From Nitrosopumilaceae archaeon (GTDB lineage: Archaea; Thermoproteota; Nitrososphaeria; Nitrososphaerales; Nitrosopumilaceae): a stretch of DNA of 64,000 bases. The translations under genes and the position numbers were made by a program. Positions within the stretch are counted from its first letter, which is position 1, and each line of letters opens with the position of its first letter. Positions 12,848-60,585 of the stretch are shown piece after piece. The notes beneath the pieces are model-generated. The model was not told the origin of the DNA, made no database searches, and was given only the letters and a program-made list of their open reading frames with translations. The stretch spans positions 960,001-1,024,000 of the forward strand of contig OZ242365.1 in NCBI GenBank assembly GCA_965208905.1. Direction: 5' to 3'.

Positions 12848-13755
12848 TTAATCCATACTATCAAATTATTCTAGGGTGGTTAAAGGGTTGGCGTGAAGTG
12901 GCTGCGCACACCATTACAAAATCAAAGATATCAACGAGATATCAGCAGAAATTGAATTCGTTTCATCTTTGGTACCACACATCTACACTTACCACATATG
13001 TAATCACCATCTTCCAGTATAGGTTCGCCCATGGTCGATAACGCGTAGTTACATGTCGGTTCTGTAGGTGTCACATGATTGTTGGTAGATGCTTTATGGC
13101 CTGCTGGCTTTTGGTTGCCAGTTGTGGATACCGTCTCTGTCGGCCCAATATCTGACTGGCATCTTTGCCGATACACGTATGCCTCTCTGCCAGGCTCGGG
13201 CCTTTGCCAGATTGCGTATGTTATTTAAAGTCCATACTGGCCAAGATGAGTAGTTTCAAAAGAATCAGGTACACCATACAAAATGACCAGATTCTGGTCA
13301 GCAACACCAATTCGCAAGAGTACATCACGCAAGACAAATGAAGTACGTAATTTATCTGATCCTCCGCGTTTGTCCGAGAACCGGTGTCTTGCCAGTGGTG
13401 GTTATACCAGTCGAGCCGGCCACTATGATGTGTACCTTGTCACCTGTCATCTTAATTGTGATGCAGTTGCCCTTTATAGAGACGGTCTGGGCGCAGGCCA
13501 GCCTCCATAGGGTTATTGTGGTCGGAGCCTTTTCCACCTTGCCCAGCATCTCATCTGCCATTCTTTTGTTATGCGCATACCCTTACCGATCATCCACCGT
13601 GTGTATGCAATGCTGCCCATCAGCAGGTCTGAGTATGCGTATGGTCAACCCCTCTTGGAGCAGTCCATCTCATCCATCTGACTGCCCGTAGGGATCTATG
13701 ATGCCGACCCGTAGTCGGGAGGCATGCAAATTATGAAACGCTATCATGAAATCTA

Positions 13756-15269
13756 GGTTCCTACTGCAAGCACGGGGGCTCCCGCACCTACAATACATTA
13801 CACGTCACACCAGAGGACGACGGTGTATAGAGCATCTCGTTCCCCGGTCTGTGCTTGACGTTTCTCAGGGGAGCTGATGCAAGAACCCTCCACGTCCAGA
13901 CGCCCCTTAACATGGGTGCTGCCGGTATTGTCCGGCAAGTTTCGTAAGTTTAGTTGGCCATGCCTAGCCCCCGGGCCAAGTTTCTTCAGCCCCACATCCT
14001 CTATGTTTGAGCCCGCATTACAGTCGGCATGATACGTGTAGCCACACTTCTTACACAAGAACCGTCTACCATCCCGGTTGTCCTTATGTGTATAACCGCA
14101 CGAGTAGCACCGTTGGCTTGTATACGCTGCAGCAACCCAAATTATTTCGCCAGTCAACTTGTACGCCAACAGTAATGCCAACAGCCCCCAGCACTGCTCC
14201 AGAATGGCCTTATTGAGACCAGATTTCTGCGCAACGTTTTTGCCGGGTTTTTCTTCCGTACCCTTGGCGGACTTTGCCATGTTTTGTATAGGAAGTTTCT
14301 CAAAGGCGGCATGTGTGGTGCTGTCCGATATAACGCGTGATATTTTATGCGCGGTGGTCTTTCGAATATTTGCAGCTTTGCGTTTGTTCTTGGCAGCCCT
14401 CTTGGCAGCTTTGGCCCACCGTCGGGAGCCGGGCTTACGATTTACACAGTCGGGTTTCTGCCTGCGTGATGCTATCTTTTGTGCCTTAGAGGCTGTTTTT
14501 TCGGCGTTGTTCATGCGGCGTGTCATCTTTTCGGGTACCATTATTACACAGTCAGGTGTGGCCACATTACCAACATTCCGGTCTATACCAATAACAGTCT
14601 GTTCGGTCACGGTTGGCTTCTCATCGGGTATATCACAGGATATGGTAATCCTCCACCCGCCATCCGGTAGTTGAAATAGTTGTGCCGTCTTGTATCGGTA
14701 ATTCAAGACGGGAAACTCCCGCGACAGTTTAACCTCGCCCATCTTGGCTATCTTGATTGTACGTGTATCAGTGAAGCGCGCTTGACCAGTAGTGCCATCA
14801 TGCGTTATCGTCAACGGGATGGAGATGTGACCTCCATATTTCTTAAAGTGCGGTTCACCAAATTCCGCCTTAGGTTTGATGTTGACAGCCTTCAGCCTCT
14901 CTGTTTTCACATATTGGTCATAATGCCTGCCCAAGTCATGTAATATTTGGCGCGTCACCCCGGATATGGACTGACGCATCCAACGCGGACCCGAATGGCT
15001 GCGCAAGTCCGTATACCACGCGCTTATCCTACCACGCGTAGTGTTGACCCTCCCGGTTCGACGGTACTCTTCCTTGAAGGTTTCTAACAGTTTGTTATAC
15101 ACGTACCTGTCCATGCCGGCCTGTCTGGCTAACATCTCCTTCTTGAACCCTTTACGAAATCTAACGCCGAATGTGTATGTGCGTAGTACCATTAGCGTAC
15201 AGTACGGTCTACATGTTTAAAAAGATAGTTGAGATGTGATATATGGCACCCATCCTTGCGGGAGGAACC
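13756..15269 (-). mobile_element. TIR/TSD-bounded tnpB element A
   Basis: TIRs GGTTCCTACTGCAAG (13756-13770) and CTTGCGGGAGGAACC (15255-15269), 13/15 match; flanks GAAATCTA (13748-13755) and GAAATCTG (15270-15277). Confidence 0.85.
13798..15192 (-). CDS. tnpB: TnpB RNA-guided endonuclease
   Basis: HTH N-terminus (RYVYN), RuvC-I GIDRN, RuvC-II FEKL, YTSQRC..C/C..C zinc finger, RuvC-III HADCNA..NI. Confidence 0.95.
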   Translation of the reverse strand: MVLRTYTFGVRFRKGFKKEMLARQAGMDRYVYNKLLETFKEEYRRTGRVNTTRGRISAWYTDLRSHSGPRWMRQSISGVTRQILHDLGRHYDQYVKTERLKAVNIKPKAEFGEPHFKKYGGHISIPLTITHDGTTGQARFTDTRTIKIAKMGEVKLSREFPVLNYRYKTAQLFQLPDGGWRITISCDIPDEKPTVTEQTVIGIDRNVGNVATPDCVIMVPEKMTRRMNNAEKTASKAQKIASRRQKPDCVNRKPGSRRWAKAAKRAAKNKRKAANIRKTTAHKISRVISDSTTHAAFEKLPIQNMAKSAKGTEEKPGKNVAQKSGLNKAILEQCWGLLALLLAYKLTGEIIWVAAAYTSQRCYSCGYTHKDNRDGRRFLCKKCGYTYHADCNAGSNIEDVGLKKLGPGARHGQLNLRNLPDNTGSTHVKGRLDVEGSCISSPEKRQAQTGERDALYTVVLWCDV

Positions 15270-15302
15270 GAAATCTGAAACATTAAAAATTAGGCGTTAT
15301 AC

Positions 15303-21045: not shown

Positions 21046-21217
21046 TGTGGGCGAGTAACCATGTGGACAAACTGGTACGGCTTGCTACTCGCAATTCAAT
21101 TATATGGTATATCAGAATTGCGTTTGATTGTTTGGCATCACGATAAAAAATGTACCAAAATCGTGCAATATGCATAAAATTGTATTGTATGGCATGGTAT
21201 TATGAATTTGTGGTGCT
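21046..21217 (+). promoter_or_regulatory. CRISPR leader
   Basis: AT-rich non-coding region between cas2 and the first repeat; GCGAGTA...TACTCGC inverted repeat; the degenerate repeat lies at the opposite end of the array. Confidence 0.8.
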
Positions 21218-24200: not shown

Positions 24201-27200
24201 GATTTCCGAGACATTTTTGTCTCGGCCCCATTGAAGCTACACGGCATCATACATCAGTTCCACCTTGGACTTGATTTCCGAGACATTTTTGTCTCGGCCC
24301 CATTGAAGCCCAGGCCTAAACTTGTATCCGTGCCACCATCCAGTATTTCCGAGACATTTTTGTCTCGGCCCCATTGAAGCGAGAGTTTGAAGCAGATAGT
24401 AGACATGACATCGGCAATTTCCGAGACATTTTTGTCTCGGCCCCATTGAAGCTAGTAAAAGTACGGTCTAATCTTTATGCCGTTTCGTAATTTCCGAGAC
24501 ATTTTTGTCTCGGCCCCATTGAAGCCGAAAATACCATTTGCGAATGATCTACTTCATTCTTCCATTTCCGAGACATTTTTGTCTCGGCCCCATTGAAGCA
24601 CGCAAGTTATGTATACGTTTGCCGAAAAGGTACAAATTTCCGAGACATTTTTGTCTCGGCCCCATTGAAGCGGACCACAAGGGCCAAAAGGTGATCAAGG
24701 CGATGTTGATTTCCGAGACATTTTTGTCTCGGCCCCATTGAAGCTAACTGGTACCACCCCATACAATGGTGTGCAGAATGCATTTCCGAGACATTTTTGT
24801 CTCGGCCCCATTGAAGCGAGCAGTCGCCGAGTGAATCGTTGCCCAGCACCTGAGATTTCCGAGACATTTTTGTCTCGGCCCCATTGAAGCAATGCACGCT
24901 GGCAAGGGCCATCATACAAGGAAATGCATTTCCGAGACATTTTTGTCTCGGCCCCATTGAAGCAGGTACAATAATACGACCATCTATGATCGCGATGCTC
25001 ATTTCCGAGACATTTTTGTCTCGGCCCCATTGAAGCCGGTACAAAGCGGCATGTCGTCACAACCGACAGGAAATTTCCGAGACATTTTTGTCTCGGCCCC
25101 ATTGAAGCTCTAGGGGGACTAGTTTATCGTGAATCCACTTACCCTTATTTCCGAGACATTTTTGTCTCGGCCCCATTGAAGCAAAATTACTTTGCATGTC
25201 CTGCACCAATGCTTTTTGTGCATTTCCGAGACATTTTTGTCTCGGCCCCATTGAAGCAAAGAAGTACCTAGTCCCCTTAGGCCGGCATTCCCAGATTTCC
25301 GAGACATTTTTGTCTCGGCCCCATTGAAGCTCCGTTATGTATATGGTCGGCCAAGAGGTCCACTCATAATTTCCGAGACATTTTTGTCTCGGCCCCATTG
25401 AAGCTCTGGAGTACATGCAGTACAGTTTCGTTTTATTTTGATTTCCGAGACATTTTTGTCTCGGCCCCATTGAAGCGAAGCAAAGCGACGTCGAGGCCAC
25501 ATAATCGGTGTCATTTCCGAGACATTTTTGTCTCGGCCCCATTGAAGCAGGGCCGAAAAGGGGGGTTCTGGGGTGATATTTGGGGATTTCCGAGACATTT
25601 TTGTCTCGGCCCCATTGAAGCATACAGCGGCCTAACGCATAGACCGGGTGGTATGACGATTTCCGAGACATTTTTGTCTCGGCCCCATTGAAGCCTGTCC
25701 TCGCCAAACTCACCATTGCGCCATTTGCGCATTTCCGAGACATTTTTGTCTCGGCCCCATTGAAGCGAGTTGTTCGCCGGCCGTCTCGGCACACGCAACA
25801 CCATTTCCGAGACATTTTTGTCTCGGCCCCATTGAAGCTCGTTAACAGTTGTGCCTGCAGTATGCGCAGGATTTGCCATTTCCGAGACATTTTTGTCTCG
25901 GCCCCATTGAAGCAGCAATTCCGTACAGGCCACGCAAACGGTAATCAAAATTTCCGAGACATTTTTGTCTCGGCCCCATTGAAGCGACACACCCGAATAC
26001 GGCAAGACCAGCGTCGTATTACAATTTCCGAGACATTTTTGTCTCGGCCCCATTGAAGCACAAGGGAGGGATCTGCCCAGCACGGGGCACCCCCCATTTC
26101 CGAGACATTTTTGTCTCGGCCCCATTGAAGCTTCGCTGAGTTGGTTGGGACTGGGCAATGCTACACATTTCCGAGACATTTTTGTCTCGGCCCCATTGAA
26201 GCCAAACAAGAATCGTATGTCTTCATGGTCGTACTCGGATTTCCGAGACATTTTTGTCTCGGCCCCATTGAAGCCCCAATATGCCGCCCGCCTTTAGTGT
26301 GCGGGCCTCGAATTTCCGAGACATTTTTGTCTCGGCCCCATTGAAGCAATCGACTGCGTAATATGCGCCGAGTACAGTCTGAATTTCCGAGACATTTTTG
26401 TCTCGGCCCCATTGAAGCTAACTGCAATCGAAGCGACACCAAACAGGGACGAATGATTTCCGAGACATTTTTGTCTCGGCCCCATTGAAGCTATGGTCCC
26501 ACTCGGTTACATCCAGCCGCCTTGTATCATTTCCGAGACATTTTTGTCTCGGCCCCATTGAAGCAACAAGGAATGTACACTGGTGTTATCTAGTTCCACA
26601 TTTCCGAGACATTTTTGTCTCGGCCCCATTGAAGCTTGTAAACTCACTGTTGATAGCGAGAGAGTGAGACTCATTTCCGAGACATTTTTGTCTCGGCCCC
26701 ATTGAAGCTCCGTGATACATGATGAATAGCCGTACTGTTTCCACATTTCCGAGACATTTTTGTCTCGGCCCCATTGAAGCTGCTCAAAGACGTCTTGTAA
26801 TACATTCCGCTAGCGTAATTTCCGAGACATTTTTGTCTCGGCCCCATTGAAGCTTATCCCGATTTGCACCCTGAAATTCCAACGCTATTATTTCCGAGAC
26901 ATTTTTGTCTCGGCCCCATTGAAGCTGGGACGTGTCCGCTACTACCTCACCATTCGGGCCTAATTTCCGAGACATTTTTGTCTCGGCCCCATTGAAGCAC
27001 CGCAGCCACACGGAAATCATACTGTGAGCCATTAGATTTCCGAGACATTTTTGTCTCGGCCCCATTGAAGCAGAACCGTGTCTAGGTTGGTTTCACTTTG
27101 TTGCATGATTTCCGAGACATTTTTGTCTCGGCCCCATTGAAGCATCAACCAAGCCGGCTGTTGTTGCTACTGTTGTTGCGATTTCCGAGACATTTTTGTC

Positions 27201-30200
27201 TCGGCCCCATTGAAGCTATCCCAGTCCGTATATTGTATAACAAGGTCCATATTTCCGAGACATTTTTGTCTCGGCCCCATTGAAGCACTCCCGAAGTGGC
27301 AGGTCAAGCATACACAGAACGAACAATTTCCGAGACATTTTTGTCTCGGCCCCATTGAAGCGGTAATACAACCACAACCACTCAGGTTGTCGCCAAAAAT
27401 TTCCGAGACATTTTTGTCTCGGCCCCATTGAAGCTAATCATGCGGCCCTGTAGTTCGCCGGGGTATTCTATTTCCGAGACATTTTTGTCTCGGCCCCATT
27501 GAAGCTTCAAACTTCGGATGAACTCCGCCAAAGTCATAATATTTCCGAGACATTTTTGTCTCGGCCCCATTGAAGCTGAGAACTCTTAGAGATCTTTGTT
27601 TCTATTCCACATCATTTCCGAGACATTTTTGTCTCGGCCCCATTGAAGCTATAACTCTCTAGTCTCTGGCCATACTTTATCTATAATTTCCGAGACATTT
27701 TTGTCTCGGCCCCATTGAAGCCCAACCTACGTTGAGCAAAGTCTTTCAAGTTTGCAGGATTTCCGAGACATTTTTGTCTCGGCCCCATTGAAGCTAAACG
27801 TTTCACCGTATCCAATCGCGGGGTTGTGCGATTTCCGAGACATTTTTGTCTCGGCCCCATTGAAGCAAGCCGGCCCGCGAAATCATAGACAGTGTAATCC
27901 CATTTCCGAGACATTTTTGTCTCGGCCCCATTGAAGCATTTTGTACGTCTGTACAATCTACATAAGCGATCTCTATTTCCGAGACATTTTTGTCTCGGCC
28001 CCATTGAAGCGTATATTGCGGGGTTTGCCTAAAATGAGCATGGGTTATTTCCGAGACATTTTTGTCTCGGCCCCATTGAAGCAATCCGTAGGGGGGAAAA
28101 TACCTAAAAGCGGTCTGTTTATTTCCGAGACATTTTTGTCTCGGCCCCATTGAAGCATAGATCATTCTGGCACCCTCATAACAGGTAAAAAATTTCCGAG
28201 ACATTTTTGTCTCGGCCCCATTGAAGCCTCGCTGTTAAGAATTCTTCAAATTCCGTACTACTAATTTCCGAGACATTTTTGTCTCGGCCCCATTGAAGCT
28301 TTCAGATAGTGTCTCAAATGCACTTTCCATCGCAAATTTCCGAGACATTTTTGTCTCGGCCCCATTGAAGCACCGCTCTGAGAGTTCTGAGAACCCCAAT
28401 AGTATTTTATTTCCGAGACATTTTTGTCTCGGCCCCATTGAAGCATATGTCCGTGGGGCCGGTGGCGCGCCAGACGAATATATTTCCGAGACATTTTTGT
28501 CTCGGCCCCATTGAAGCACCCATTTTGTTAGATTGTTTACCTTCCGTTCTACGATTTCCGAGACATTTTTGTCTCGGCCCCATTGAAGCAGGGACATGGT
28601 GGCGATGGTTCGACATGCCGAGTCCGGATTTCCGAGACATTTTTGTCTCGGCCCCATTGAAGCCGCTAATCTTTTTTCCACGCAACATTTTTTAACAATA
28701 TTTCCGAGACATTTTTGTCTCGGCCCCATTGAAGCAAGTAACCATCATGGAGGACGTGCAATGAAGGACAAATTTCCGAGACATTTTTGTCTCGGCCCCA
28801 TTGAAGCGGCGATGATACAGACGATTGGGTAAAACGTCTTGTAATTTCCGAGACATTTTTGTCTCGGCCCCATTGAAGCGTTAGATGATTTTAGATTTTG
28901 GGTAGTGGTGATTGTATTTCCGAGACATTTTTGTCTCGGCCCCATTGAAGCAATTGCAAGTTTTATCAATGCGACACTTTGTGTAAATGATTTCCGAGAC
29001 ATTTTTGTCTCGGCCCCATTGAAGCGAACATTGCAGTGATAATGAACTTATGGCTTATTGCATAATTTCCGAGACATTTTTGTCTCGGCCCCATTGAAGC
29101 CCTTAATTCGGGAATTATATGCCAAATCAAACGTAAAATTTCCGAGACATTTTTGTCTCGGCCCCATTGAAGCTTAAGTCGCAGTTTGGAGTATGCCCTA
29201 TCCATTCGCATTTCCGAGACATTTTTGTCTCGGCCCCATTGAAGCAGAATGGTCAACGAACCGAGTCGTTGAGGAAGTAGCATTTCCGAGACATTTTTGT
29301 CTCGGCCCCATTGAAGCAGATATTGTACCATGTTCTTATCCGCCTGCTCACTGCATTTCCGAGACATTTTTGTCTCGGCCCCATTGAAGCTTACCAACAT
29401 ACATGGACTTTGGGCGCAACTTTACAATTTCCGAGACATTTTTGTCTCGGCCCCATTGAAGCCACCCGTAAGTTTAAAGATATTGTCTGCAAGTGCCTAT
29501 TTCCGAGACATTTTTGTCTCGGCCCCATTGAAGCCCTGCAGAGATTTGTTAGTTGCAGTGTGGCATCACCATTTCCGAGACATTTTTGTCTCGGCCCCAT
29601 TGAAGCAACGTTGCTAGATTAATCATCAGCCTGGTACGCAACATTTCCGAGACATTTTTGTCTCGGCCCCATTGAAGCTTATTATGACTCTTAAGCACAA
29701 ATGTACACACGAACATTTCCGAGACATTTTTGTCTCGGCCCCATTGAAGCTTTAGAGCCCATAGCCCGATGAACCCTGCGGAGGGATATTTCCGAGACAT
29801 TTTTGTCTCGGCCCCATTGAAGCGATGTGTCTTAAGCCGGCATCGCGCAGGTCCGTCTCGTTATTTCCGAGACATTTTTGTCTCGGCCCCATTGAAGCGT
29901 GGCAAGCTGGCCATTACGGCCGACATACCGCGGGACATTTCCGAGACATTTTTGTCTCGGCCCCATTGAAGCTTGCGGTTTACCCAGAACAGAACCTACG
30001 TATTCTTTATTTCCGAGACATTTTTGTCTCGGCCCCATTGAAGCGTTTGGTTATGTTGACGCCGGCCCGCTTTTTGACTTTATTTCCGAGACATTTTTGT
30101 CTCGGCCCCATTGAAGCGATGTGTCTTAAGCCGGCATCGCGCAGGTCCGTCTCGTTATTTCCGAGACATTTTTGTCTCGGCCCCATTGAAGCGTGGCAAG

Positions 30201-30483
30201 CTGGCCATTACGGCCGACATACCGCGGGACATTTCCGAGACATTTTTGTCTCGGCCCCATTGAAGCTTGCGGTTTACCCAGAACAGAACCTACGTATTCT
30301 TTATTTCCGAGACATTTTTGTCTCGGCCCCATTGAAGCGTTTGGTTATGTTGACGCCGGCCCGCTTTTTGACTTTATTTCCGAGACATTTTTGTCTCGGC
30401 CCCATTGAAGCACGCCTAGGGCTGGCATGTTAAAGTCTAGCCCCATGATTTCCGAGACATTTTTGTCTCGGTCCCATAGAAGC
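21218..30483 (+). CRISPR. CRISPR array, about 128 repeats and 127 spacers (manual count)
   Basis: 36-bp repeat ATTTCCGAGACATTTTTGTCTCGGCCCCATTGAAGC with an 8-bp stem CCGAGACA/TGTCTCGG; spacers about 34-40 bp; terminal repeat degenerate (30448-30483). Confidence 0.99.
29788..30375 (+). repeat. Tandem duplication of four repeat-spacer units (2 x 294 bp)
   Basis: 29788-30081 is repeated at 30082-30375. Confidence 0.95.
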
Positions 30484-30729
30484 TTGAATGGGCGGTATTA
30501 TCCAGCCAAAATCCCCCGGATTCTACTGTACATTTAGAATATTTGCCAAATAACATTGCTAGATCATAACTATTTATACAATATGCATGCCAATCACACA
30601 TAAACTTTATTGTAGGTATAAAGAGATGCAGAATGGTGCCATAGACTTGCCCTGTCAAATGAATGAACAAGAACTGGGCAACAAGCTAAAGAGTTATATT
30701 TTTAAACACAATATGACAACATTGCGGGT

Positions 30730-38410: not shown

Positions 38411-39540
38411 GCCCTAAAACACTGGCAGGCGCCATCATACCATTCATACTGATTACCATACTTGTCATATACATAACAGGCCCCGGCTCAGACTATATCA
38501 TAATAGGTACACCACTACCTGAAGTGACACTAGAACGTATAGATTTTGTAGAGAATGAAATACAAGTTACCATACGAAATACAGGCCCAATACCCGTACA
38601 GGTAGTCCAAGCAGACGTAAATGACAGAATACAACCATCTGCTATAGAACCTGATGGAAGTTTAGAACGGTTCGAGACAGCATTGGTTCGCATACCATTC
38701 TTCTGGAATGAAGCCGAACCATACAATCTAGGCATAACCATACATGATGGTACGCGCTTTGAGAGGGAAGTAGCTGCTGCCTCGCCAGCCGTCACACCCG
38801 ACATTCAGACAACGACAAAATTTGCACTGGCAGGCGTATACATAGGTGTAATACCTGTATTCATAGGACTATTGTGGCTGCCCTTCATACGAAAATTAGA
38901 CTCTAAAAAATTGGGATTTTTTCTGGCCATCACAGTGGGCCTCTTGATATTTTTGGGAATTGATGCCATACAAGAGGCCCTTGAGGTATCAAAAGAATCT
39001 CTGGCAGGCTCCATCAACGGACCATTACTGATACTGGTTGCAGCATCGGGCGCATTTCTTGTATTGCAGTATATATCCGGACGATTCTCATCACATCGCA
39101 CAAAGATAACGGCAGCCATTCTAGTCTCCATCGGTATAGGTTTACACAACTTTGGTGAAGGGTTGGCGTTGGGGGCCGCGCTAAATTTAGGCTCGGTCGC
39201 ATTCTCTGCATCTTTGATGGTCGGCTTTGCCATACACAACACCACCGAAGGAGTGGCCATAGCCTCACCACTATCCAGACAAAAGAACATACTGCCAAAA
39301 TTAATCATATTAGGCATGGTGGCAGGCGCTCCAGCCATACTTGGCACATGGGCCGGCGGCTTTGCATACTCGCCCATTTTTATAGTAGCATTTTTGGCGG
39401 CGGGGGCTGGCGCAATATTTCAGGTTGCAATCGCAATATCTCAATGGATGTTAAAAGATAACACATATCACTCATATCAGATATGTGGAGGCATATTCTT
39501 GGGTATGATAATCATGTATGCAACTGGTATACTGGCATAG
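38407..39540 (+). CDS. ZIP family divalent metal transporter
   Basis: GLHNFGEGLALG and HNTTEG signature helices, multiple TM segments. Confidence 0.93.
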   Translation: MSPKTLAGAIIPFILITILVIYITGPGSDYIIIGTPLPEVTLERIDFVENEIQVTIRNTGPIPVQVVQADVNDRIQPSAIEPDGSLERFETALVRIPFFWNEAEPYNLGITIHDGTRFEREVAAASPAVTPDIQTTTKFALAGVYIGVIPVFIGLLWLPFIRKLDSKKLGFFLAITVGLLIFLGIDAIQEALEVSKESLAGSINGPLLILVAASGAFLVLQYISGRFSSHRTKITAAILVSIGIGLHNFGEGLALGAALNLGSVAFSASLMVGFAIHNTTEGVAIASPLSRQKNILPKLIILGMVAGAPAILGTWAGGFAYSPIFIVAFLAAGAGAIFQVAIAISQWMLKDNTYHSYQICGGIFLGMIIMYATGILA

Positions 39541-40124
39541 GTTCCTCCCGCAAGGACGGGTGTTGGTTGATGTGTGTTGGATAATGTTAAATACGTAATT
39601 AAACCGTACTGTATAGTGGCATCAGTAAAAAATAGCAGGGCAGTAACACGTCCATACGCAAAAAATTTGGGCATGCAACACGTGTTTGAGCATGGCAGAA
39701 GGATGGGAAGTTTGGACGCAGCTTACGTCGCAGATTACATTCTGCCATGATGCGAAAGGCATCGGATTTAATTTATGAAAAGTCCCAATTTTTGGGAGTG
39801 GAGGCACTACATATGCGTCCACACAACACATCCAAGTTGTGTGCTGCATGCAGAACCATATTAACTGGAACTTATCATAAAAAAGACTGCACCCACTGCC
39901 GTACAGTTGGCGTAGATCGTGACGTCAACGCAGTGGAGAACATACGGCGAACAAGCGCCGTATCCCGATATGGTTCGTAAGGTTTCGGCCAGTCTGGGCG
40001 AAGTCCGTCGTGGTGTGGATGTAATACTCGATCCCACACCACTCATACAGGGTTGCTGGAGCAACTGGGCCGACAGACTATCCCGCGTGGTGATGTGACA
40101 TCACCCGACTTTGCGGGAGGAACC
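39540..40124 (+). mobile_element. TIR/TSD-bounded non-autonomous element B with internally deleted tnpB
   Basis: Perfect 14-bp TIRs GGTTCCTCCCGCAA (39540-39553) and TTGCGGGAGGAACC (40111-40124); perfect 8-bp TSD CTGGCATA (39532-39539, 40125-40132). Confidence 0.92.
39617..39980 (+). pseudogene. tnpB: tnpB remnant (C-terminal zinc finger plus RuvC-III)
   Basis: PHNTSKLCAAC...CTHC...DRDVNAVENI; most of the gene missing; short out-of-frame N-terminal stub. Confidence 0.85.
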
Positions 40125-41000: not shown

Positions 41001-42251
41001 TTGACACTTCCTAGAGGTATGAAGGACATACCATACATAGAGACTCAAAATATACGATATATACAATCAAAGTTTGAGGTACTCGCCGAATCATACGGTT
41101 ATGACACAATACATCCCTCACCACTAGAGTTGCTATCCACACTAGAGACAAAGTCCGGCGAGGCCATCAAAGATGAGATATACGAGTTCCAAGACAAGGG
41201 CGGTCGACACGTGGGATTGAGATTCGATCTTACCATGGGCATAACAAGATGCATAACTACTGATCGCTCTGCATCATTACCATCAAAGATATCTAGTTTT
41301 GGAGGTGTCTTCAGATATGATGAACCCCAAAAGAATCGTTATAGATACTTTCATCAGTGGGATATTGAAGTGTACGGAAGACCTCACATATATCAGGATA
41401 TCGAAGTAATAGAGTTTACAGCGCGCTTCTTTGAGTCACTACCACTACAGGTAACCATACATATGAGCCATCGTGAACTTGTCGAGTCTCATATATGCCA
41501 TACCTTTGGCGCTACACCACATAGTGATGTTATACCCGATATGCTGCGCGCCTTAGACAAGATGCAAAAGAGATCCCGCACCGATATAGTGGCGGAGTTT
41601 GCCAAATATGATGAATCCAAACTAAACTGTATACTTGATATGGCATCCCTACACGGTACACCTGAACAGGTTGAACCAGAACTACCATCTCATATTGTAC
41701 ACCATCCAAAATGGCTACATCTCAAAGATGTAGTATCATCATTATACAATATAGGTATACACAACATACAGATAGACTTTGGTATAGTTCGAGGATTAGA
41801 CTACTATACTGGCATGGTCTTTGAGGTGTTTGGCAGTAATGATACGGCCCTGGCAGGTGGTGGAAGATATGACTCTCTACCTGGTGCCTTTGGCCGTACA
41901 GATATGGGTGCGGCAGGCGTAGCCGGTGGCGTTGAGCGCATAATATCCGAGTTGAATCGTAATGTACAAAATACATACGATGTGGCCGTAATCTATACTC
42001 CTGATACATACGATGTGGCCTCCAAACTGGCCTCTACACTACGACAGAAAGAGATGCGTGTCCGCTTTGATGTATCTGCCCGTTCGCTTAAAAAGCAACT
42101 ATCTATATCCTCACAGGACTGCCGCTATGGTATTATCATCGGCCCCTCCGAAGTCAAGGATAACACCGTAATACTGCGAGACATGAAACTACGAACACAG
42201 CATACAATACCATACGCTGAGGGAATTATCTACCTTACTGAACATACGTAA
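41001..42251 (+). CDS. hisS: Histidyl-tRNA synthetase (last 10 codons supplied by element C)
   Basis: PRGMKD, LRFDLT, FRYDEPQ..RYR.FHQ, RGLDYYTG, GGGRYD. Confidence 0.97.
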   Translation: MTLPRGMKDIPYIETQNIRYIQSKFEVLAESYGYDTIHPSPLELLSTLETKSGEAIKDEIYEFQDKGGRHVGLRFDLTMGITRCITTDRSASLPSKISSFGGVFRYDEPQKNRYRYFHQWDIEVYGRPHIYQDIEVIEFTARFFESLPLQVTIHMSHRELVESHICHTFGATPHSDVIPDMLRALDKMQKRSRTDIVAEFAKYDESKLNCILDMASLHGTPEQVEPELPSHIVHHPKWLHLKDVVSSLYNIGIHNIQIDFGIVRGLDYYTGMVFEVFGSNDTALAGGGRYDSLPGAFGRTDMGAAGVAGGVERIISELNRNVQNTYDVAVIYTPDTYDVASKLASTLRQKEMRVRFDVSARSLKKQLSISSQDCRYGIIIGPSEVKDNTVILRDMKLRTQHTIPYAEGIIYLTEHT

Positions 42252-43658
42252 CATACGCGTACATTCCCAGGTGCTTCATGACGCTTGATGTTTTGGGTCG
42301 ATTGCACGCTTGATTCTCACGCCGCCGTCTGGCGTCCGGAACTGCACAAACAGGTGGCTTCCGGGTCCGGCCCATTTCACGCCTTTCGAGGGCCATTCCT
42401 TCCCCCGCGGGAACCTTCATACCGGTCCCCCGTTGAATTATATTCACCGACGCATTGCCGTCGGCGTTTGCTACATGCCCACATCCTATACACTTGAACA
42501 TCTCCCCATTTCGGTTCTCCTTGTTTGTGTAGCCGCACACACTGCACTCCTGACTCGTGCGTTTTGGATTCACTTCTACTACACGGATGCCCAGCCGCTC
42601 TGCGATAATGCGTATCTTTCGCAGTATTGCATAATGCCGAATGAACCGCATACCGCGATTCATACCCTTCTTGTGCCTGCCACCGCGCCTGCTCATGGCC
42701 TCAAGGTTGAGCTGCTCGACATATATTACATCCACGCCCTCGCATATCTTCTTGGCTAGAAGCCACTCCGCATACTCGCGGTCGTTCGCATTACCCTGAT
42801 TGTACTTTTCTCGTTTATGTTTAATTTTACACGTCGAGTTGGAGTGTTTGTTGCGGTGTGAGATGGTACGGCGCGTCTCATCATTCCATGTACGGTTCGT
42901 GCGGAATGCGGTTGCCGTGTCGTACGATATTATACACGAAGTGTTGTGGTCGAATTTGCACACGACGGTCGGATTTGTTATCCCTCTGTCTATGCCGGCA
43001 ACAACACCGGTCTTGGCGCGCCGTTCGGGTGTAGGTACGTCATATGTTATGTGCAACCGGTAGATATGGTCACACGACTTGACGTGCCCCCACGACTTTG
43101 GTGTTACACATACCAAACGGAAAGACCTTGAGCCATACAGCCAGTTGTGTGGGAATTGGTATGGCTGCTCCGCAGGCAACTCAACAACACCAAGGCCCGG
43201 CAATGACGCATGCTTGTTGTCCACATATACAGGCCGCACATCACATGATACTGCCTGTGTATTGTCAAGCTTTTTGGAGCGAAAACTCAGCTCGCCATTG
43301 CCGTACTTGTTCGAGACATCCGCAGCAGTGCGGGCTTGGTTGATGGCCGTATTTTGATATATACGCTCTACTGTTTGCAGCCACTGCACGGAACGCCTCA
43401 CCTTGGTGAACTCCTTGGAGAGGTCATATGTGGTGAGTGTGGGGTCGGCCAACAACCTCTCTACGGCCCAGTTGTACACGAACCGCTGCGAGTTCCGTAT
43501 TTTGGATATGTGACGCGTCTGAGAGCGTGTCAGGTCTATGCGGAAGCCATGTGATCTATACATACCGCTCTATACACTATAGTACTTTAAAAACCTAACT
43601 CATGAGATGGGTTTACAAGTTTGACTGTTTTTAGGTTACAGTTATAGGGATAAGTCCC
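42221..43658 (-). mobile_element. TIR/TSD-bounded tnpB element C inserted in the hisS 3' end
   Basis: TIRs GGGAATTATC (42221-42230) and GATAAGTCCC (43649-43658), 9/10 match; perfect 8-bp TSD TACGCTGA (42213-42220, 43659-43666). Confidence 0.9.
42235..43563 (-). CDS. tnpB: TnpB RNA-guided endonuclease
   Basis: RFVYNWA, RuvC-I GIDRG, RuvC-II VEQL, RTSQECSVCG/CIGCG, RuvC-III NADGNAS.NI. Confidence 0.95.
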   Translation of the reverse strand: MYRSHGFRIDLTRSQTRHISKIRNSQRFVYNWAVERLLADPTLTTYDLSKEFTKVRRSVQWLQTVERIYQNTAINQARTAADVSNKYGNGELSFRSKKLDNTQAVSCDVRPVYVDNKHASLPGLGVVELPAEQPYQFPHNWLYGSRSFRLVCVTPKSWGHVKSCDHIYRLHITYDVPTPERRAKTGVVAGIDRGITNPTVVCKFDHNTSCIISYDTATAFRTNRTWNDETRRTISHRNKHSNSTCKIKHKREKYNQGNANDREYAEWLLAKKICEGVDVIYVEQLNLEAMSRRGGRHKKGMNRGMRFIRHYAILRKIRIIAERLGIRVVEVNPKRTSQECSVCGYTNKENRNGEMFKCIGCGHVANADGNASVNIIQRGTGMKVPAGEGMALERREMGRTRKPPVCAVPDARRRRENQACNRPKTSSVMKHLGMYAYVTYVQ

Positions 43659-43680
43659 TACGCTGATATCGATAAACATA

Positions 43681-45419: not shown

Positions 45420-46820
45420 ATGATTAAAGTTATATACGGAATAACTATAATAGCGGCGACTTTGTTAGTAGGCGGAATACCAAATTTGGCCACTGCCCAG
45501 GAACAGATACAGGTACAAGCATCCTTCTTTCCATATGCTGAATTTACTAGGAATGTAGTTGGTGATACTGCAACTGTATCACAGTTTCTACCAGTAGGTG
45601 CGGGACCACACGATTGGGAACCAAGCATACGTCAGGTACAGACACTGAGTAGTGCCGATATCATAGTGTATAACGGTCTAGGTGTAGATATGTTTATGGA
45701 TAGGCTGATCGAATCAGGAGATTTGGGTGACACACATATTATAAAAGCTACTGAGGGTTTGACTCTTCTTACCACAGGCGTCTCTGATGCAATAGCTTTC
45801 ATACTAGAGGAGCATGAACATGGTCACTATGACGATGATGAGGCAATAGATGCAATGCATGATGTTATAGATGATTATAATATTCGTGGCATATTACAGG
45901 AGTACCGTGCAGGAGATCTGTCCACGACAGAGGCACTAGGTGAAATTACTACTATATTGCGTGGCGCAGAACACGGTCATGACCATGACCATGACGACCA
46001 CGATGACCACATGACGACCACCGACGATCATGACGACCACCACGATGAACACGATGAACACGATGAACACGATGAACACGATGAACACGATGAACACGAT
46101 GAACACGATGAACACCACGACGAACACGGCGATGACGCTGAGATTGTCCACGAAGTTCATGAAATACTAGAAGAGGCTGAAGAGGGACACCTCACCAACG
46201 CTGAGGCACTTGAGGAGATAGAGCATCTCTTAGATGACCACGCCCACGACGACCATGATGACCACGGTGATGAGCATGCTCATGATCATGGAATATACGA
46301 CCCACATGTCTGGCTAGACCCAGTATTGGCTCAACACCAAGTGGAGACCATACGAGACGGTCTTGTCGATGCAGATCCAGATAACGCTGCTGCCTACATG
46401 GCAAATGCAGAATCTTATCTACATGAACTTGAAGACCTACATGATCAGTATGTTTCCACACTGGCAGATTGCAGGCATGACACCATTGTGACATTCCACT
46501 CGGCATTTGCCTATTTGGTGGAGCGATACGATCTGAAGGTCGAGTCTCTGACTGGACTTGATGGTGCTGACGCTATAAGTACTGCTGATCTAATCGAGCT
46601 TGCTGACTTCATTAATGATAACAACATCGATTACATTCTTACTGAGTTTGGTGTAGACCAACGTAACTTTGAGGTAATAGCCGAAGAGACCAATACTACA
46701 GTACTGACACTTAGCCCAGTAGAGGGTATTTCACAAGAAGACGTTGATTCAGGCGCTACCTACATCAGTAAAATGATGGAAAACCTCGGTGTGCTAAAGA
46801 CAGCACTAGACTGCAACTAG
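45420..46820 (+). CDS. ZnuA/AdcA-like metal ABC transporter substrate-binding protein with a large His/acidic insert
   Basis: PHDWEP, YNGLG, DPHVWLDP, TFHSAFAYL; signal peptide. Confidence 0.93.
   Translation: MIKVIYGITIIAATLLVGGIPNLATAQEQIQVQASFFPYAEFTRNVVGDTATVSQFLPVGAGPHDWEPSIRQVQTLSSADIIVYNGLGVDMFMDRLIESGDLGDTHIIKATEGLTLLTTGVSDAIAFILEEHEHGHYDDDEAIDAMHDVIDDYNIRGILQEYRAGDLSTTEALGEITTILRGAEHGHDHDHDDHDDHMTTTDDHDDHHDEHDEHDEHDEHDEHDEHDEHDEHHDEHGDDAEIVHEVHEILEEAEEGHLTNAEALEEIEHLLDDHAHDDHDDHGDEHAHDHGIYDPHVWLDPVLAQHQVETIRDGLVDADPDNAAAYMANAESYLHELEDLHDQYVSTLADCRHDTIVTFHSAFAYLVERYDLKVESLTGLDGADAISTADLIELADFINDNNIDYILTEFGVDQRNFEVIAEETNTTVLTLSPVEGISQEDVDSGATYISKMMENLGVLKTALDCN
46041..46112 (+). repeat. 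Coding VNTR (CACGATGAA) x8, encoding (HDE)8
   Basis: Eight perfect 9-bp units. Confidence 0.95.
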
Positions 46821-53521: not shown

Positions 53522-55098
53522 GGTGATTATGCAGAAGCCTAATGACGGCAAACACCGGCTTGCATTATCCGACCATCGGATTCAATGACGCATGTCTGTT
53601 CGGATCAATCCGGCCATCCCTTCCTCCAACCCCTTCGGAGCTTATGCGATCAAACCAAAGTACTTTACTTTAAATATTCGTAATTGCCCATATAGGTATG
53701 TCCACAATAACACGCACAATACATGTGGCGCACAACAACGGGCAACTCCTGGGAGGTCTTCTGCACTACATACTCGCCGCGTCCAACGGTACCGCCAAGG
53801 CACTCCGTAGGGGCGTGCGGGGCAAGGAACTGAGGCGCAGGGCGGTACACCACACACGTGTGTATCAAACACGCTTTGCCGACTACATTGTATTGGATGT
53901 ATTTGGAAGTCACAAGGCATGGCGTACAAAGCAATTGACGGATAAACATGCCCGCGCGCCGCACTTTCGTAATCCGGTGGCGCAGACCGACATATTTGAG
54001 TTGGCATTTGATGATACATCAAAACGGTGGAACGGCACGCCGTCAATCCATGTAGCAGTATATGGAACGGGTCGGCAGAATAGGTCGTGGATGGTATTTC
54101 CGGTACCGCCATATGTCGTAAATGAGCTTGGCAGGCCAAACAGGACACCCAAAACCGTATCCATAAACAGGGATGAGATATTCATCACGTATCGGGAAAA
54201 TGTGCAGGATAGTAAAGCCGTAATGTGGGCAGGTGTGGATATGAATGCAAAGAACAACGCGTATTCATTCACTGATGGTACGGTAACTATTGTGGGCAAC
54301 CGAAATGGGAGTGAGTACAACAGGGCGTGTAGCAGGATATTGAAGGTGAGGCGGCGGAACGATGACCGCATCATGACAAAGTATACGGGAAAGGCATGGA
54401 AAACATACGGGAACCGCATACGCAATGATGTACATGTGGAGGCCAAAAGGTTGGCCAATGCGCGGTGTGTCGTAGGGTTTGAGACGCTGAACATCCACAA
54501 TCTGTACAACAAAAATGGTAAAATGTCGCCATATGTCCGCGGCAAGACGAAAGCGACGCTGAATACCGGCCAGAGGCAGGCTGCCCTCAAGAACGCGGCA
54601 GAGTCCGCGGGGCTACCAAGTGTGGGCGTTGAGCCGCGCAACACGTCTGCCAAATGCCACAAGTGTGGCGGAAGACTGGCGTTTCACAGTAAACGGAGCG
54701 GCGAGGTGCCGCTGCGCAACATGCGCTGCGGGGGTGTGTGCAGGGCAATGCGGGAGAGGGATGCCAACGCCAGCACCAACATATTATTGCTTACAATACG
54801 GAAATTAATGGGTGATTCTGTCGTTTCGACTGGAACCATCACGACGTCCGAGCTGCTGCAACTACTCAAAGTGGTGGTTGCCAATCGCACAGTCCCGCAT
54901 CGTAAGAAATTAATCGACATCATGCGGCTCTTAGAGGGTCGTAGCGCAAACACCTTGTGGTGTTTGTCGGGGGCGCACAAACCAAAACACCGTAATTACG
55001 TCGACGGTGACTCCATGGGTGTATTTGGGGTGGGCGATGCCGGCCGGAACGGTCCGGGGCCGCCCAATGCTGCCAAGTTGTGATTATGCATAATCTCT
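53522..55098 (+). mobile_element. Probable TIR/TSD-bounded tnpB element D (degenerate ends)
   Basis: Left end GGTGATTATGCAGAA (53522-53536) versus right-end reverse complement AGAGATTATGCATAA (55084-55098), 12/15; flanks ATTACATA and AATAAATA, 6/8. Confidence 0.6.
53698..55083 (+). CDS. tnpB: Divergent TnpB/Cas12f-like RNA-guided nuclease
   Basis: RuvC-I GVDMN, RuvC-II FETL, RNTSAKCHKCG..C...C, RuvC-III ERDANASTNI; about 100-aa C-terminal extension. Confidence 0.88.
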   Translation: MSTITRTIHVAHNNGQLLGGLLHYILAASNGTAKALRRGVRGKELRRRAVHHTRVYQTRFADYIVLDVFGSHKAWRTKQLTDKHARAPHFRNPVAQTDIFELAFDDTSKRWNGTPSIHVAVYGTGRQNRSWMVFPVPPYVVNELGRPNRTPKTVSINRDEIFITYRENVQDSKAVMWAGVDMNAKNNAYSFTDGTVTIVGNRNGSEYNRACSRILKVRRRNDDRIMTKYTGKAWKTYGNRIRNDVHVEAKRLANARCVVGFETLNIHNLYNKNGKMSPYVRGKTKATLNTGQRQAALKNAAESAGLPSVGVEPRNTSAKCHKCGGRLAFHSKRSGEVPLRNMRCGGVCRAMRERDANASTNILLLTIRKLMGDSVVSTGTITTSELLQLLKVVVANRTVPHRKKLIDIMRLLEGRSANTLWCLSGAHKPKHRNYVDGDSMGVFGVGDAGRNGPGPPNAAKL

Positions 55099-56393: not shown

Positions 56394-56599
56394 CTAGGAG
56401 TATATTTTGTTTGCAGTACAAATCAAAGTCCACTACAACAGACATAGTCACCCTAAACGATACAAAGGCTGTGATACAAAATTATAATGAATTTGTATAT
56501 TATGATCGCTCATCTGTTGAGTGTTGGGGGTAAGTGAAGCCCCGCACCAAGCAGGTATAGTCGAAAAAGATCTGTATTGGTAGATCCCTCCATACCTCC

Positions 56600-57262
56600 A
56601 TGGCGTGTAGCGAGATGCAAAAACAAAAAGAATCCGGCCCCCTGTTGCTCCTGCTGGCATTGTTTGTCGATATGGCGGCTACAGCCGAGCTGTTCAGGAC
56701 GGTCCGGTGGGCCAACGGCCTGTTCTGCCCGCGTTGCGGCGGGGTTGATATCGTCTGGTACTGCCGATACCATGGATACGTCCGGAGGCACACATGCAAG
56801 GGCTGCCGCCGGACCTTCAACTACAAGACCGGAACTATTCTTCACTACCGGCATGTCCGGATGGGAGACTGGATGCTAGCGGTCTGAATGTTCCTGTGCG
56901 GGCAGCCCAACGGGATATCGCTAAACTACATTGCAACTTCGATAGGCCGCGCCTACGGGGCCGTCTGCCAGATGTACCGCGACATCATGCGGAAGGTGGG
57001 CGAGCTGCCGGAGGGCAAGCTGTCCGGGACGGGAGAGACCGATGAGGGATACACCAGGGCCGACTCCAAGGGGGTGTCACTGGGCAGCAACGGCGAGAAC
57101 CGGACTGTTCCCAGCCGCCGCCGGCTGCCCCGCGGTCCGGGGAGGGGCACCTTCGAGAAGAACACGCCGATGGTTACCATCTTGACAGTAACCAGAGTAT
57201 ACGCTTTAAGTCTTCGATTTTATAGTCTGCCAGATAGTCTGACCCCTGCTTTACCTGTATAG
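56600..57262 (+). pseudogene. IS1595-family DDE transposase pseudogene
   Basis: RWANGLFCPRCG...CKGCRRTFNYKTGT zinc ribbon, in-frame TGA at 56885-56887, LSG..ETDEGY first catalytic Asp, GRGT; truncated near 57180; GC-rich. Confidence 0.88.
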
Positions 57263-58729: not shown

Positions 58730-58801
58730 ATGCATATGATCATCTGACGTAAACTACATTAGTACAATATATGGTATATTGGGAGTTGTTTATGATGCAA
58801 C

Positions 58802-60516
58802 GGGTGTGTCCCACAGGTAAATATCCAAAAACAGTGAATGGTGTATGCCAATAACGGGAATCAAATATTAAATAGTAAAACATAGTATAGTACTCTATAA
58901 AAAGACGATGTGGTGACACCGTAGCAGTATCAATGCCACACGGCAAGGTGTACAATCCTGCAAAATTCCGTGAACTAACAGGGTCTCGCAGACCACCCAA
59001 ATACGACCCAGATGATATACTGGCATCCGCTTTACAATATGCAGTACACAAGACCGGCCTGGGGTATCATCTGTGGTCTGAGTTCATCAGGGATTTTCCA
59101 AAAGTGCGGGAAGCGTATAGTGGTGGAGAATTAAAAGAGTATGATGCCGGGGTTAAGAAGATATACAGATTGCTCAAGCACCGTGATAATAAATACATGG
59201 CGCAGTTCGCGTTAACTATGAAAGATGAGTGTGAGGCTAAAGTGCGTGCATACTGTATAAGACGTGCGCAAGACCCCAACGCGCGGCGGCCAAAATGCAC
59301 CAACCCAATACTGCGGCAGAATGCTGGGTCTTGTAGGATATATGGTCAAGGTTTTCGATGTAGGTTATCTGACGCACCGAATAAACCACTACATTCATCA
59401 CCATACGTGGTACTGCGATTTCCAATAATCCCACATAAACATACCATGGAGGTACAACTCACGCCCTACATGGTGGAAAAACTAGCTACTGCCGTAAGTG
59501 TGGGGGCCGTTACCGTGACAGATAAGACCATATCTATAGCATATGAGCCGCAACCCATCACACCAGTACAACCCAAAGGTATCACAGGTATGGATGTCAA
59601 CAAAGTACAGCATGTTACGGCTGACACTAACGGGAGTGTAGAGCGTGTTCCAAATATGGCGCTTGAAGCCGCTCAGACACGACGGCAGAAACTCGCGAAT
59701 TTAGGAGTAACTGGCGGCAAACCGAAGAGTAAACAATCCCAAAAACCAAAGAAGCGTACTCTGCCAAAGCACGTCAAACACGTAGGCCGTAGGCCGAAGA
59801 ATAAAAAGCGTCATGATGAACGTGTGAGTCGTTGTGAACGCGCCCACATAAACACCAGATACAACAATCAAAAGAAGGACTGGTTGTTCAAATTAATGCA
59901 TGGGTTGGCTTCCCTGGGCTTTGTGTTGGCGTTGGAGGAGCCAACCATCGACAGGATGATGAAAAAGAGTAACAAGAATATGTCAAACGAGACGCGCGAC
60001 TTGTTGAAGATGGGGCTGAGTCAGGGTATAATATGGGCGGTGGCTAAAAGCGTATACGGAAAGCATGGTCTTCCCGTGATTGGTGTTGTTGCCAAAGGTA
60101 CTAGTTCTACATGTCCCACATGTAATGGAAAGTTATGGGAGCCAGAGTACGGCATGAAAATATGGAAAAAGTGGAGGCGTATTAAGGGGTGTGGGGTTTG
60201 TTTATATCATATCGACAGGGATGATGTCGCAGCCATCAATATTGTACGGCGCGGCATCCTCAAGTATTGTAAACCGGCAGCCGATTCTAATCGGTGGGTG
60301 GCCGGGGATTGGGAGCAGTTGGTCCAACCATTATTGGACCATACGGTCTTGTGGTTTCCGCAGGACCGTGAAGGGCGGCATCCTAAAGGGGAGGTGATGA
60401 ACTCAATGAGTGATGATTTACCATCCCTGGACGACCACCTGGATGTATCCAATTGTGCTGCTGGTGTAGCGCTGCCGGAGGAGACTCCGGTGGCTTTATA
60501 CTAGTGGGACACACCC
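58802..60516 (+). mobile_element. TIR/TSD-bounded tnpB element E
   Basis: Perfect 13-bp TIRs GGGTGTGTCCCAC (58802-58814) and GTGGGACACACCC (60504-60516); perfect 9-bp TSD TGATGCAAC (58793-58801, 60517-60525). Confidence 0.93.
58933..60504 (+). CDS. tnpB: Divergent TnpB/Cas12f-like RNA-guided nuclease (523 aa)
   Basis: RuvC-I GMDVN, RuvC-II LEEP, GTSSTCPTC..CGVC, RuvC-III DRDDVAAINI; Lys/Arg-rich insert; stop codon abuts the TIR. Confidence 0.88.
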   Translation: MPHGKVYNPAKFRELTGSRRPPKYDPDDILASALQYAVHKTGLGYHLWSEFIRDFPKVREAYSGGELKEYDAGVKKIYRLLKHRDNKYMAQFALTMKDECEAKVRAYCIRRAQDPNARRPKCTNPILRQNAGSCRIYGQGFRCRLSDAPNKPLHSSPYVVLRFPIIPHKHTMEVQLTPYMVEKLATAVSVGAVTVTDKTISIAYEPQPITPVQPKGITGMDVNKVQHVTADTNGSVERVPNMALEAAQTRRQKLANLGVTGGKPKSKQSQKPKKRTLPKHVKHVGRRPKNKKRHDERVSRCERAHINTRYNNQKKDWLFKLMHGLASLGFVLALEEPTIDRMMKKSNKNMSNETRDLLKMGLSQGIIWAVAKSVYGKHGLPVIGVVAKGTSSTCPTCNGKLWEPEYGMKIWKKWRRIKGCGVCLYHIDRDDVAAINIVRRGILKYCKPAADSNRWVAGDWEQLVQPLLDHTVLWFPQDREGRHPKGEVMNSMSDDLPSLDDHLDVSNCAAGVALPEETPVALY

Positions 60517-60585
60517 TGATGCAACTCTGACTATTAAAGGCCCCCGCATTGGGTGTTTGTTATGATATGATATGATATGGTACAT

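Follow-up and report, generated by a model that had tools for sequence, protein, structure and literature searches.

The TnpB nucleases are understood as partners of scarless TnpA transposases that select a transposon-associated motif (TAM). Element E, a 1715-bp unit located in the 64,000-nucleotide stretch of a Nitrosopumilaceae archaeon analysed here (contig OZ242365.1, positions 960,001 to 1,024,000; below, the window), encodes a TnpB as its sole long open reading frame (ORF) between terminal inverted repeats (TIRs) and exact target-site duplications (TSDs). E is read here, at a probability of about 0.68, as a canonical unit of TnpB and its guide RNA (ωRNA or reRNA) placed within ends of the DDE type: the scaffold of the RNA would extend to the last base of the TIR, the guide would consist of the TSD plus the adjoining flank, and the TAM would lie 5′ of the TSD in the empty allele. 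This reading builds on the anatomy of E and of four further elements, A to D, on a conserved RNA structure and its extent, on one-sided motifs next to the TSDs and on an empty site in a sister genome; the 3′ end of the RNA, the length of the guide, cleavage and homing, and an origin of the motifs by selection, would follow from these observations.

Element E, its empty site and its relatives

The window is part of a single-contig genome of 2.21 Mb (99.57% complete) of an ammonia-oxidising archaeon which encodes an archaeal AmoA, and public runs that hold parts of the window DNA are labelled sponge and marine metagenomes. Within E, whose components are listed in Table 1, the interval 60250-60545 comprises the part of the ORF that follows RuvC-III, the TIR and TSD of the right end, and 20 nt of flanking DNA, and the tnpB stop codon TAG (60502-60504) is situated inside the right TIR region. 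The encoded protein carries the TNB domain PF07282 (34.9 bits versus a cut-off of 26.3; the proteins of A, C and D also score above the cut-off), GMDVN, LEE and DRDD are kept in all seven aligned E-type proteins, and the best solved relative aligns over positions 271-442 (E = 1.7e-4). A second genomic copy aligns with E over its entire length, from 1 to 1715, at 87% identity.

The insertion can be traced in the sister genome G083, where the flanks of E are contiguous and overlap by exactly 9 bp (...GTTTA TGATGCAAC TCTGATTATTA...), with a single TGATGCAAC and a break that coincides exactly with the ends of E. This empty site proves the insertion of E and at the same time displays the predicted target, as the predicted 20-nt guide adjoins GTTTA there with one difference. 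E-type TnpB is present in six of nine other genomes of the genus, and none was detected with the E query at E ≤ 1e-20 among 141 genomes from 26 other genera of the family. The E-type elements of the relatives possess GG[C/G]TGTGTCCCAC ends, 9-bp TSDs and a stop codon 12 or 9 bp from the end; across the genus, the TSD differs at each of 12 insertions of the E family and measures 9 bp in 11 of the 12 scored.

Genome-wide, 68 ORFs of at least 100 aa match the four TnpBs of the window, and family B, represented in the window by a miniature inverted-repeat transposable element (MITE), is a fifth TnpB family with 18 further matches. The genome, 16% of which is repeated, holds in total more than 60 tnpB copies of at least six families. 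TIRs combined with a TSD of 8 or 9 bp (at most one mismatch) delimit 43 of 54 full-length copies from 13 repeat families, a share which shows that the pairing of TIR and TSD is not due to chance. Among the window elements, the TSD of A has 8 bp (13748-13755 and 15270-15277, 7/8 matching), while those of B (CTGGCATA, directly preceded by TA) and C (TACGCTGA at 42213-42220 and 43659-43666) match at 8/8 positions. The D family makes 3-bp TSDs, found in three of four copies; the copy in the window is without a TSD.

The tnpB genes run almost to the end of their elements, with a distance between stop codon and element end of -2 to 54 bp over the families. An earlier note on this DNA had given 42 bp for A, 14 bp for C, 15 bp for D and 12 bp for E, and these values stand, with the stop codons at 13798-13800 (minus strand; element end 13756), 42235-42237 (element end 42221), 55081-55083 (element end 55098) and, for E, at the position named above (element end 60516). 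The 5′ spacers of 77-176 bp that it had listed need amendment: alignment to three other D copies sets the left end of D at about 53637 instead of about 53522, and the D spacer is therefore about 61 bp long, not 176 bp.

Solo right-end fragments of the E type were also encountered, 65-218 nt long and without a left TIR, all of which stop exactly at the TIR end (Table 1). Each may be a leftover of an element or a scaffold RNA in its own right; G083 and a further genome, G065, contain many more, and similar solo 3′ ends are found for D and A.

Conserved RNA structure at the tnpB 3′ ends

An alignment of 15 E-type 3′ ends from seven genomes, whose proteins are 51-79% identical to E, revealed in the region 60296-60516 (~220 nt) nine helices with 61 pairs, 23 of which show compensatory changes on both sides. 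In this consensus 94.2% of the cells are paired versus 41-47% with slid partners, and none of 500 shuffles was as good. Family B, including the window MITE, which retains the last ~430 nt of its parent family and with them the structured 3′ region, displays 54 pairs with 25 double changes (93.5% paired versus 35-44% with slid partners, 0/500 shuffles as good), and covariation is moderate in family R1489 (69 pairs, 11 with double changes). The many invariant G:U pairs in the E structure assign it to the sense strand of tnpB. A search of the window with Rfam at gathering threshold retrieved two tRNAs only; none of the tnpB 3′ ends matched an RNA family.

Past the Pfam TNB domain, which ends at RuvC-III, the ORFs continue for 67 (A), 67 (C), 99 (D) and 86 (E) codons. 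The description of these tails in the earlier note as non-conserved stretches of ~60-100 codons holds for their length (67-99 codons) and for their dissimilarity between families, but not within the E family, where the tail is conserved like the core. There, amino-acid divergence amounts to 0.395 in the tail versus 0.384 in the core, third-position differences are fewer in the tail (0.333) than in the core (0.503), and no intact copy interrupts the frame before a conserved TAG within the TIR, a combination which indicates that the E tail is dual-coded and not junk. The suggestion that the ORF tails represent RNA-scaffold sequence is thus borne out by the strong covariation in E and B and the moderate covariation in R1489, and the region 60296-60516 is supported, on comparative sequence grounds, as the predicted scaffold of the TnpB guide RNA, written over the C-terminal tail of tnpB.

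The predicted scaffold includes the right TIR, as had been proposed. Helix 9, with 20 pairs, uses the inner half of the right TIR as its 3′ arm and stops 9 nt from the element end, and the last five bases engage in a terminal 5-bp helix of GGGTG (60296-60300) with CACCC (60512-60516). Elements that end in ...CACACCT (7/7 loci, G135/G065 clade) carry AGGTG ~240 nt upstream and elements that end in ...CACACCC (10/10 loci) carry GGGTG upstream, which makes 17 of 17 loci consistent in all. In 12 aligned sequences, all 60 cells of the 5-bp helix pair, the terminal base being engaged in G:C in nine and in A:U in three. This switch, although one event, would tie the final base of the transposon to the predicted RNA.

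RNA runs were represented by contigs of sponge and marine metatranscriptomes, which cover small shares of the window. Cover is sparse or absent in the bins that span the tnpB bodies of D and of E. In the runs X1 and X2, both from one study, contigs run along E-like tails up to 60516 and from there into other flanks.

One-sided motifs, mobilising enzymes and alternative readings

Motifs 5′ of the left TSD were counted per family, in the orientation of TnpB and for copies with a verified TSD only. Family B shows T at -2 and A at -1 in 10/10 copies, with C at TSD base 1 in 9/10, and on the mirrored side TA at +1/+2 in 1/10. Family R1489 has G at -1 in all 11 copies (binomial p ~9e-8) and the mirrored C at +1 in two of them. 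The ATATTG-like motif of family A is made up of A-T-A-T-T-G in 6, 6, 5, 7, 7 and 5 of seven copies, family D presents TAC in the three of four copies with a TSD, and relatives in other genomes display TTA (B-like, 4/5) and G (R1489-like, 3/4). The absence of a shared motif upstream of the five TSDs, as stated initially, does not extend to the families: B, R1489, A and D each exhibit a motif of their own, and a common one escapes notice in the window because its five elements belong to five TnpB families. The 12 insertions of E are preceded by gttta, tttta, ttgtg, cgcag, cttgg, actgc, ctttg, cttgg, agtgc, ctaca, aaagt and tgacc. Within the closest subfamily, GTTTA, CTTTG and TTTTA agree in TTT[A/G] (3/3), too few insertions for a motif, and the other subfamily shows TG[G/C] in 4/7.

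A and B have a common left TIR (96% over 23 nt), a different motif and a different TnpB. The A-like elements of G083, bounded by a different TIR, keep TTA in 3/3, and more distant A-like elements in G125 and G043 have TCA in 3/4. The motif tracks the TnpB family and not the TIR, as a TAM would. The TIR-end bases that precede the right TSD (GAACC, TTCCC, CACCC, TCTCT) match no family motif, so the donor would not be cut. Of the two guides that had been envisaged, the one starting at the TSD fits the family motifs, which abut the first TSD base, and the fixed sequence inside the element end found no support. In G083, TnpBs 82-86% identical to family A are located between a different TIR, GGTTCTCGGACAAACT (L103, L109, L112, L115); the same nuclease lineage has hence switched carrier ends.

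According to the preferred reading, transcription that runs past the element would supply the guide, made up of the 9-bp duplication and the flank. The nuclease would recognise the unoccupied allele only, since TAM, single TSD and right flank are contiguous there; in the occupied allele the match would stop after 9 nt at the left TIR, and the right TSD copy would be preceded by TIR bases that are not a TAM. A cut of the empty allele followed by repair from the filled copy would spread or restore the element. DDE transposases would move the elements in trans, C and R1489 by the IS1595-type enzyme of this genome. As such a transposase chooses no TAM, only insertions that land right behind the TAM of the family could be driven, and the family-specific, one-sided motif would most simply represent a survivorship filter.

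Neither the Y1 transposase domain PF01797 nor the serine recombinase domain PF00239 has a match in the 99.57% complete genome, and the presence of TIRs and TSDs places the elements outside IS200/IS605 and IS607, which are defined by a Y1 or serine TnpA and by the lack of both. The IS1595 DDE domain, on the other hand, has nine matches above cut-off in the genome. Two near-identical 2131-bp elements with 8-bp TSDs encode an IS1595 transposase (138.5 bits); their terminal GGGAATTATA is common to the tnpB families C, C2, R1489 and K913, and the first 10 nt of their TIR are identical to the C and R1489 ends. The common terminus and the 8-bp TSDs make it most plausible that C, C2, R1489 and K913 travel as passengers of a transposase acting in trans. 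At their 3′ ends, the IS1595 element and R1489 show no similarity. The autonomous IS1595 element also carries a tRNA-Leu(CAA) gene and ~1 kb of other sequence between the transposase and its far TIR.

A transposase-bearing element with E, A or B ends was not found in this genome, seeds from the E TIR led to none, and a search for exact TSDs around other IS1595-like ORFs returned nothing. A 1272-bp pair of E TIRs was rejected as a chance match with unrelated ORFs, and two 3-kb E-type elements of G065, candidates for units of transposase and tnpB, are E-type elements broken near the left end by nested IS5-like and IS3-like insertions (L027, L030), the left TIR being present twice in L027. A second IS1595-like family has ends unlike those of any tnpB family; a transposase fragment of this family is situated in the window at 56506-57181, between element D and a glutamate dehydrogenase gene.

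A number of findings weigh against the reading of E as a TnpB-ωRNA unit with a TAM 5′ of the TSD. The C/C2 family has no clear motif before the TSD, and the upstream signal of E is only weakly T/G-rich over its 12 insertions. The A family shows almost no covariation (2/27 pairs), which is uninformative because its sequences are too conserved, and the covariation of the terminal base stems from one evolutionary event in one clade, with 2/500 shuffles reaching the observed values. The contigs that pass 60516 fit read-through at other copies and show neither ends, strand nor RNA template. A cut-and-paste transposase already leaves a donor break, which weakens the need for restorative homing, as argued in a 2026 review (PMC13565253). 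Finally, the two IS1595 copies that lack tnpB show G at -1 when read in the direction of the transposase (2/2), A-like relatives have C at +1 in 6/6, and part of the motif signal may be transposase preference. Carried further, the last point would turn all one-sided motifs into target preferences of the transposase and not TAMs, with an ωRNA that exists and a TAM coupling that is not reflected in the insertion sites. The partly palindromic G-N8/9-C of the A-like relatives, with G at -1 in 3/6, would agree with this, as would the AT-rich TSDs of R1489, which start with T or A in 11/11. Near-identical ends should mirror such preferences, however, and neither the B nor the R1489 motif is mirrored; A and B combine the same left TIR with different motifs, and A-like elements with another TIR keep TT[A/G], which renders the explanation unlikely. 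It is also conceivable, though distinctly unlikely, that TnpB with its TIR-containing scaffold RNA docks on the TAM and hands the DDE transpososome a target cut at the next base, and thereby chooses the integration site. Site choice of this kind would account for a motif that lies directly next to the TSD in four unrelated TnpB families and that tracks TnpB instead of the TIR and, if true, would represent a protein-guided forerunner of Cas12k-type guided transposition.

The remaining alternatives concern the guide and the RNA itself. The TSD might be absorbed in the scaffold or skipped, so that the guide starts after it and the TAM is the 3′ part of the TSD; PMC10711439 provides a precedent, as TIR and TSD are predicted parts of the reRNA scaffold of Fanzor1 and Fanzor2* and these reRNAs reach ~15 nt beyond the TSD. 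With TSDs of 8-9 bp that vary (the E family has 12 distinct ones, and the 3′ ends of ten B TSDs are not conserved), and with a conserved motif 5′ of the TSD and not in its 3′ part, this is very unlikely for the elements of the window. That the 3′ structure is an mRNA stabiliser or terminator, or a binding region which the transposase uses at the DNA level, appears highly improbable. Its terminal hairpin is indeed built from TIR sequence that the transposase must also read, and the RNA runs give contigs only; yet ~220 nt with nine helices and 23 covarying pairs far exceed a terminator, the G:U pairs are strand-specific, the structure starts right after RuvC-III like TnpB ωRNAs described elsewhere, unrelated TnpB families possess covarying 3′ structures of their own, and MITE B keeps exactly the structured part. 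Least probable of all is a guide of fixed sequence inside the end, for instance in the TIR, by which the nuclease would be directed to the ends of the element or to one constant site of the host. In its favour, most of the last 9 nt of the TIR remain unpaired in the consensus fold, but the final five of them pair and covary with the 5′ end of the scaffold, family-specific motifs beside variable TSDs would not be expected, and the RuvC residues, in contrast to those of repurposed TnpBs described elsewhere, are intact.

Features of the window and relation to known systems

The coordinates are collected in Table 1. Element C is inserted in the last codons of a histidyl-tRNA synthetase gene (41001-42251; overlap 42213-42251), the ORF of which now closes with TIR-derived codons, its own C-terminus being replaced. 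In the RNA library of run X4, one contig passes from the terminal 22 nt of a right TIR of the A type directly into the window sequence from 50839 onward, which points to an A-type insertion at this position in another strain. Elsewhere, the window contains a very large CRISPR array (21192-30500) of ~124 copies of a 36-nt repeat with a spacing of 71-75 bp and an exact internal duplication of 294 bp (29787-30080 = 30081-30374), adjoined by a gene for a Cas4-Cas1 fusion (19092-20753). A ZnuA-like gene (45420-46820) includes a repeat with a period of 9 bp (45964-46290) which encodes a His/Asp-rich stretch and for which RNA-library contigs show length variants.

Table 1. Positions of the elements and their parts; coordinates refer to the window unless the genome contig (G000:C1) is given.
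Feature	Position	Strand	Remarks
Element A	13756..15269	-	tnpB 13798-15192; TIR GGTTCCTCCCGCAAGG
Element B	39540..40124	+	MITE; 585-bp deletion derivative of 1.6-kb tnpB family
Element C	42221..43658	-	tnpB 42235-43563; TIR GGGA(A/C)TTATC
Element D	53637..55098	+	tnpB 53698-55083; TIR GGAGCTTATGCG, about AGAG(T/A)TTATGC
Element E	58802..60516	+	1715 bp; TIR-bounded, non-autonomous, tnpB only
E, candidate TAM position	58788..58792	+	GTTTA, 5 nt before left TSD; putative, from position
E, left TSD copy	58793..58801	+	TGATGCAAC; 9 bp, 9/9 match with right copy
E, left TIR	58802..58827	+	13 nt perfect GGGTGTGTCCCAC; 26 nt at 81%
E, tnpB ORF	58933..60504	+	523 aa; sole long ORF of element; RuvC motifs intact
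E, predicted ωRNA scaffold	60296..60516	+	overlaps last ~70 tnpB codons and entire right TIR
E, right TIR	60491..60516	+	inner part: 3′ arm of helix 9 (terminal hairpin); final 5 nt: pairing with 60296-60300
E, predicted guide	60517..60536	+	right TSD 60517-60525 plus flank; putative, length assumed
IS1595 elements (L126)	G000:C1:675271-677401 and 1211856-1213986
Solo E-type right ends	G000:C1:250376-250593, 285949-286121, 1802943-1803021, 1351318-1351400, 722319-722387, 638479-638543

The genome represents a natural data set: its more than 60 tnpB copies fall into six or more families, it has no TnpA, and each insertion is marked by an exact duplication. The layout of TAM, TSD and flank is concrete and testable, with candidate TAMs for A, B, R1489 and D, a complete predicted scaffold for E and B and, in a sister species, a target at the empty site. 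Should the motifs prove to be TAMs, surveys of insertion sites alone can reveal the TAMs of TnpBs from uncultured archaea, and RNA-guided homing would decide which cut-and-paste insertions survive.

As in IS200/IS605 elements and IS1341-type elements, for example ISDra2, TnpB is compact and combines RuvC with a zinc finger. As in the ISDra2 type, the ωRNA scaffold is predicted to overlap the 3′ end of the gene and to end at the element boundary, with a guide from the right flank and a TAM 5′ of the empty-site target. Unlike there, a Y1 TnpA is absent, perfect TIRs take the place of subterminal hairpins and TSDs of 8-9 bp (3 bp in D) are present; the TAM would not be the target motif of the transposase, and the first 8-9 bases of the guide would be TSD.

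TnpB within DDE-type inverted repeats, including solo copies moved in trans, has already been published (Altae-Tran et al. 2023, PMC10691335). The elements resemble the DDE-associated TnpBs delineated in that work, as they have inverted terminal repeats and a tnpB 3′ end within 250 bp of the end, and E, with a 13-nt perfect TIR and a stop codon 12 bp from the end, fits this description. C and R1489 also share with the solo TnpBs described there a tnpB between ends resembling those of a transposase-bearing element. Section 9 of that text gives, unlike the present analysis, no relation of TAM and TSD and no RNA structure, and one supplement of that work names IS1595 only in a list of profiles. 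The 2026 review names ISL2, IS630 and IS1031 as DDE partners of TnpB (PMC13565253), from which the one partner identified here, of the IS1595 type, differs; the review also calls the prokaryotic pairing of TnpB and DDE rare and leaves open how it can work. In the literature searched, no paper was found that connects ends of the IS1595 type with long TSDs of variable sequence and a TAM located 5′ of them; the supplementary transposon-end alignments of PMC10691335 may bear on it.

TIR-containing reRNA scaffolds have been described for eukaryotic Fanzors (Yoon et al. 2023, PMC10711439). As with Fanzor1 and Fanzor2*, the carrier is non-autonomous and encodes the nuclease only, and the TIR is predicted to be part of the scaffold. 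A long-range pair near the 3′ end of the scaffold is, in this work, a tested feature of an IS607 TnpB reRNA, and the terminal helix of E resembles it. In contrast, the Fanzor TSD, as characterized there, is short, fixed in sequence and either taken up in the folded scaffold or included in the TAM, whereas the TSD of the present elements is long and variable, no fixed TSD being found, and would have to serve as guide. With the IS1595 family, the elements have in common 8-bp TSDs (A, B and C), TIRs starting with GG and, in C and R1489, the terminal GGGAATTATA; A to E deviate from its definition in that no transposase is located inside, E further in its 9-bp TSDs and in a TIR which matches no transposase-bearing element found here. 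TnpB inside DDE-type ends was already known; the proposed arrangement of TAM, TSD and flank would be a new variation on it.

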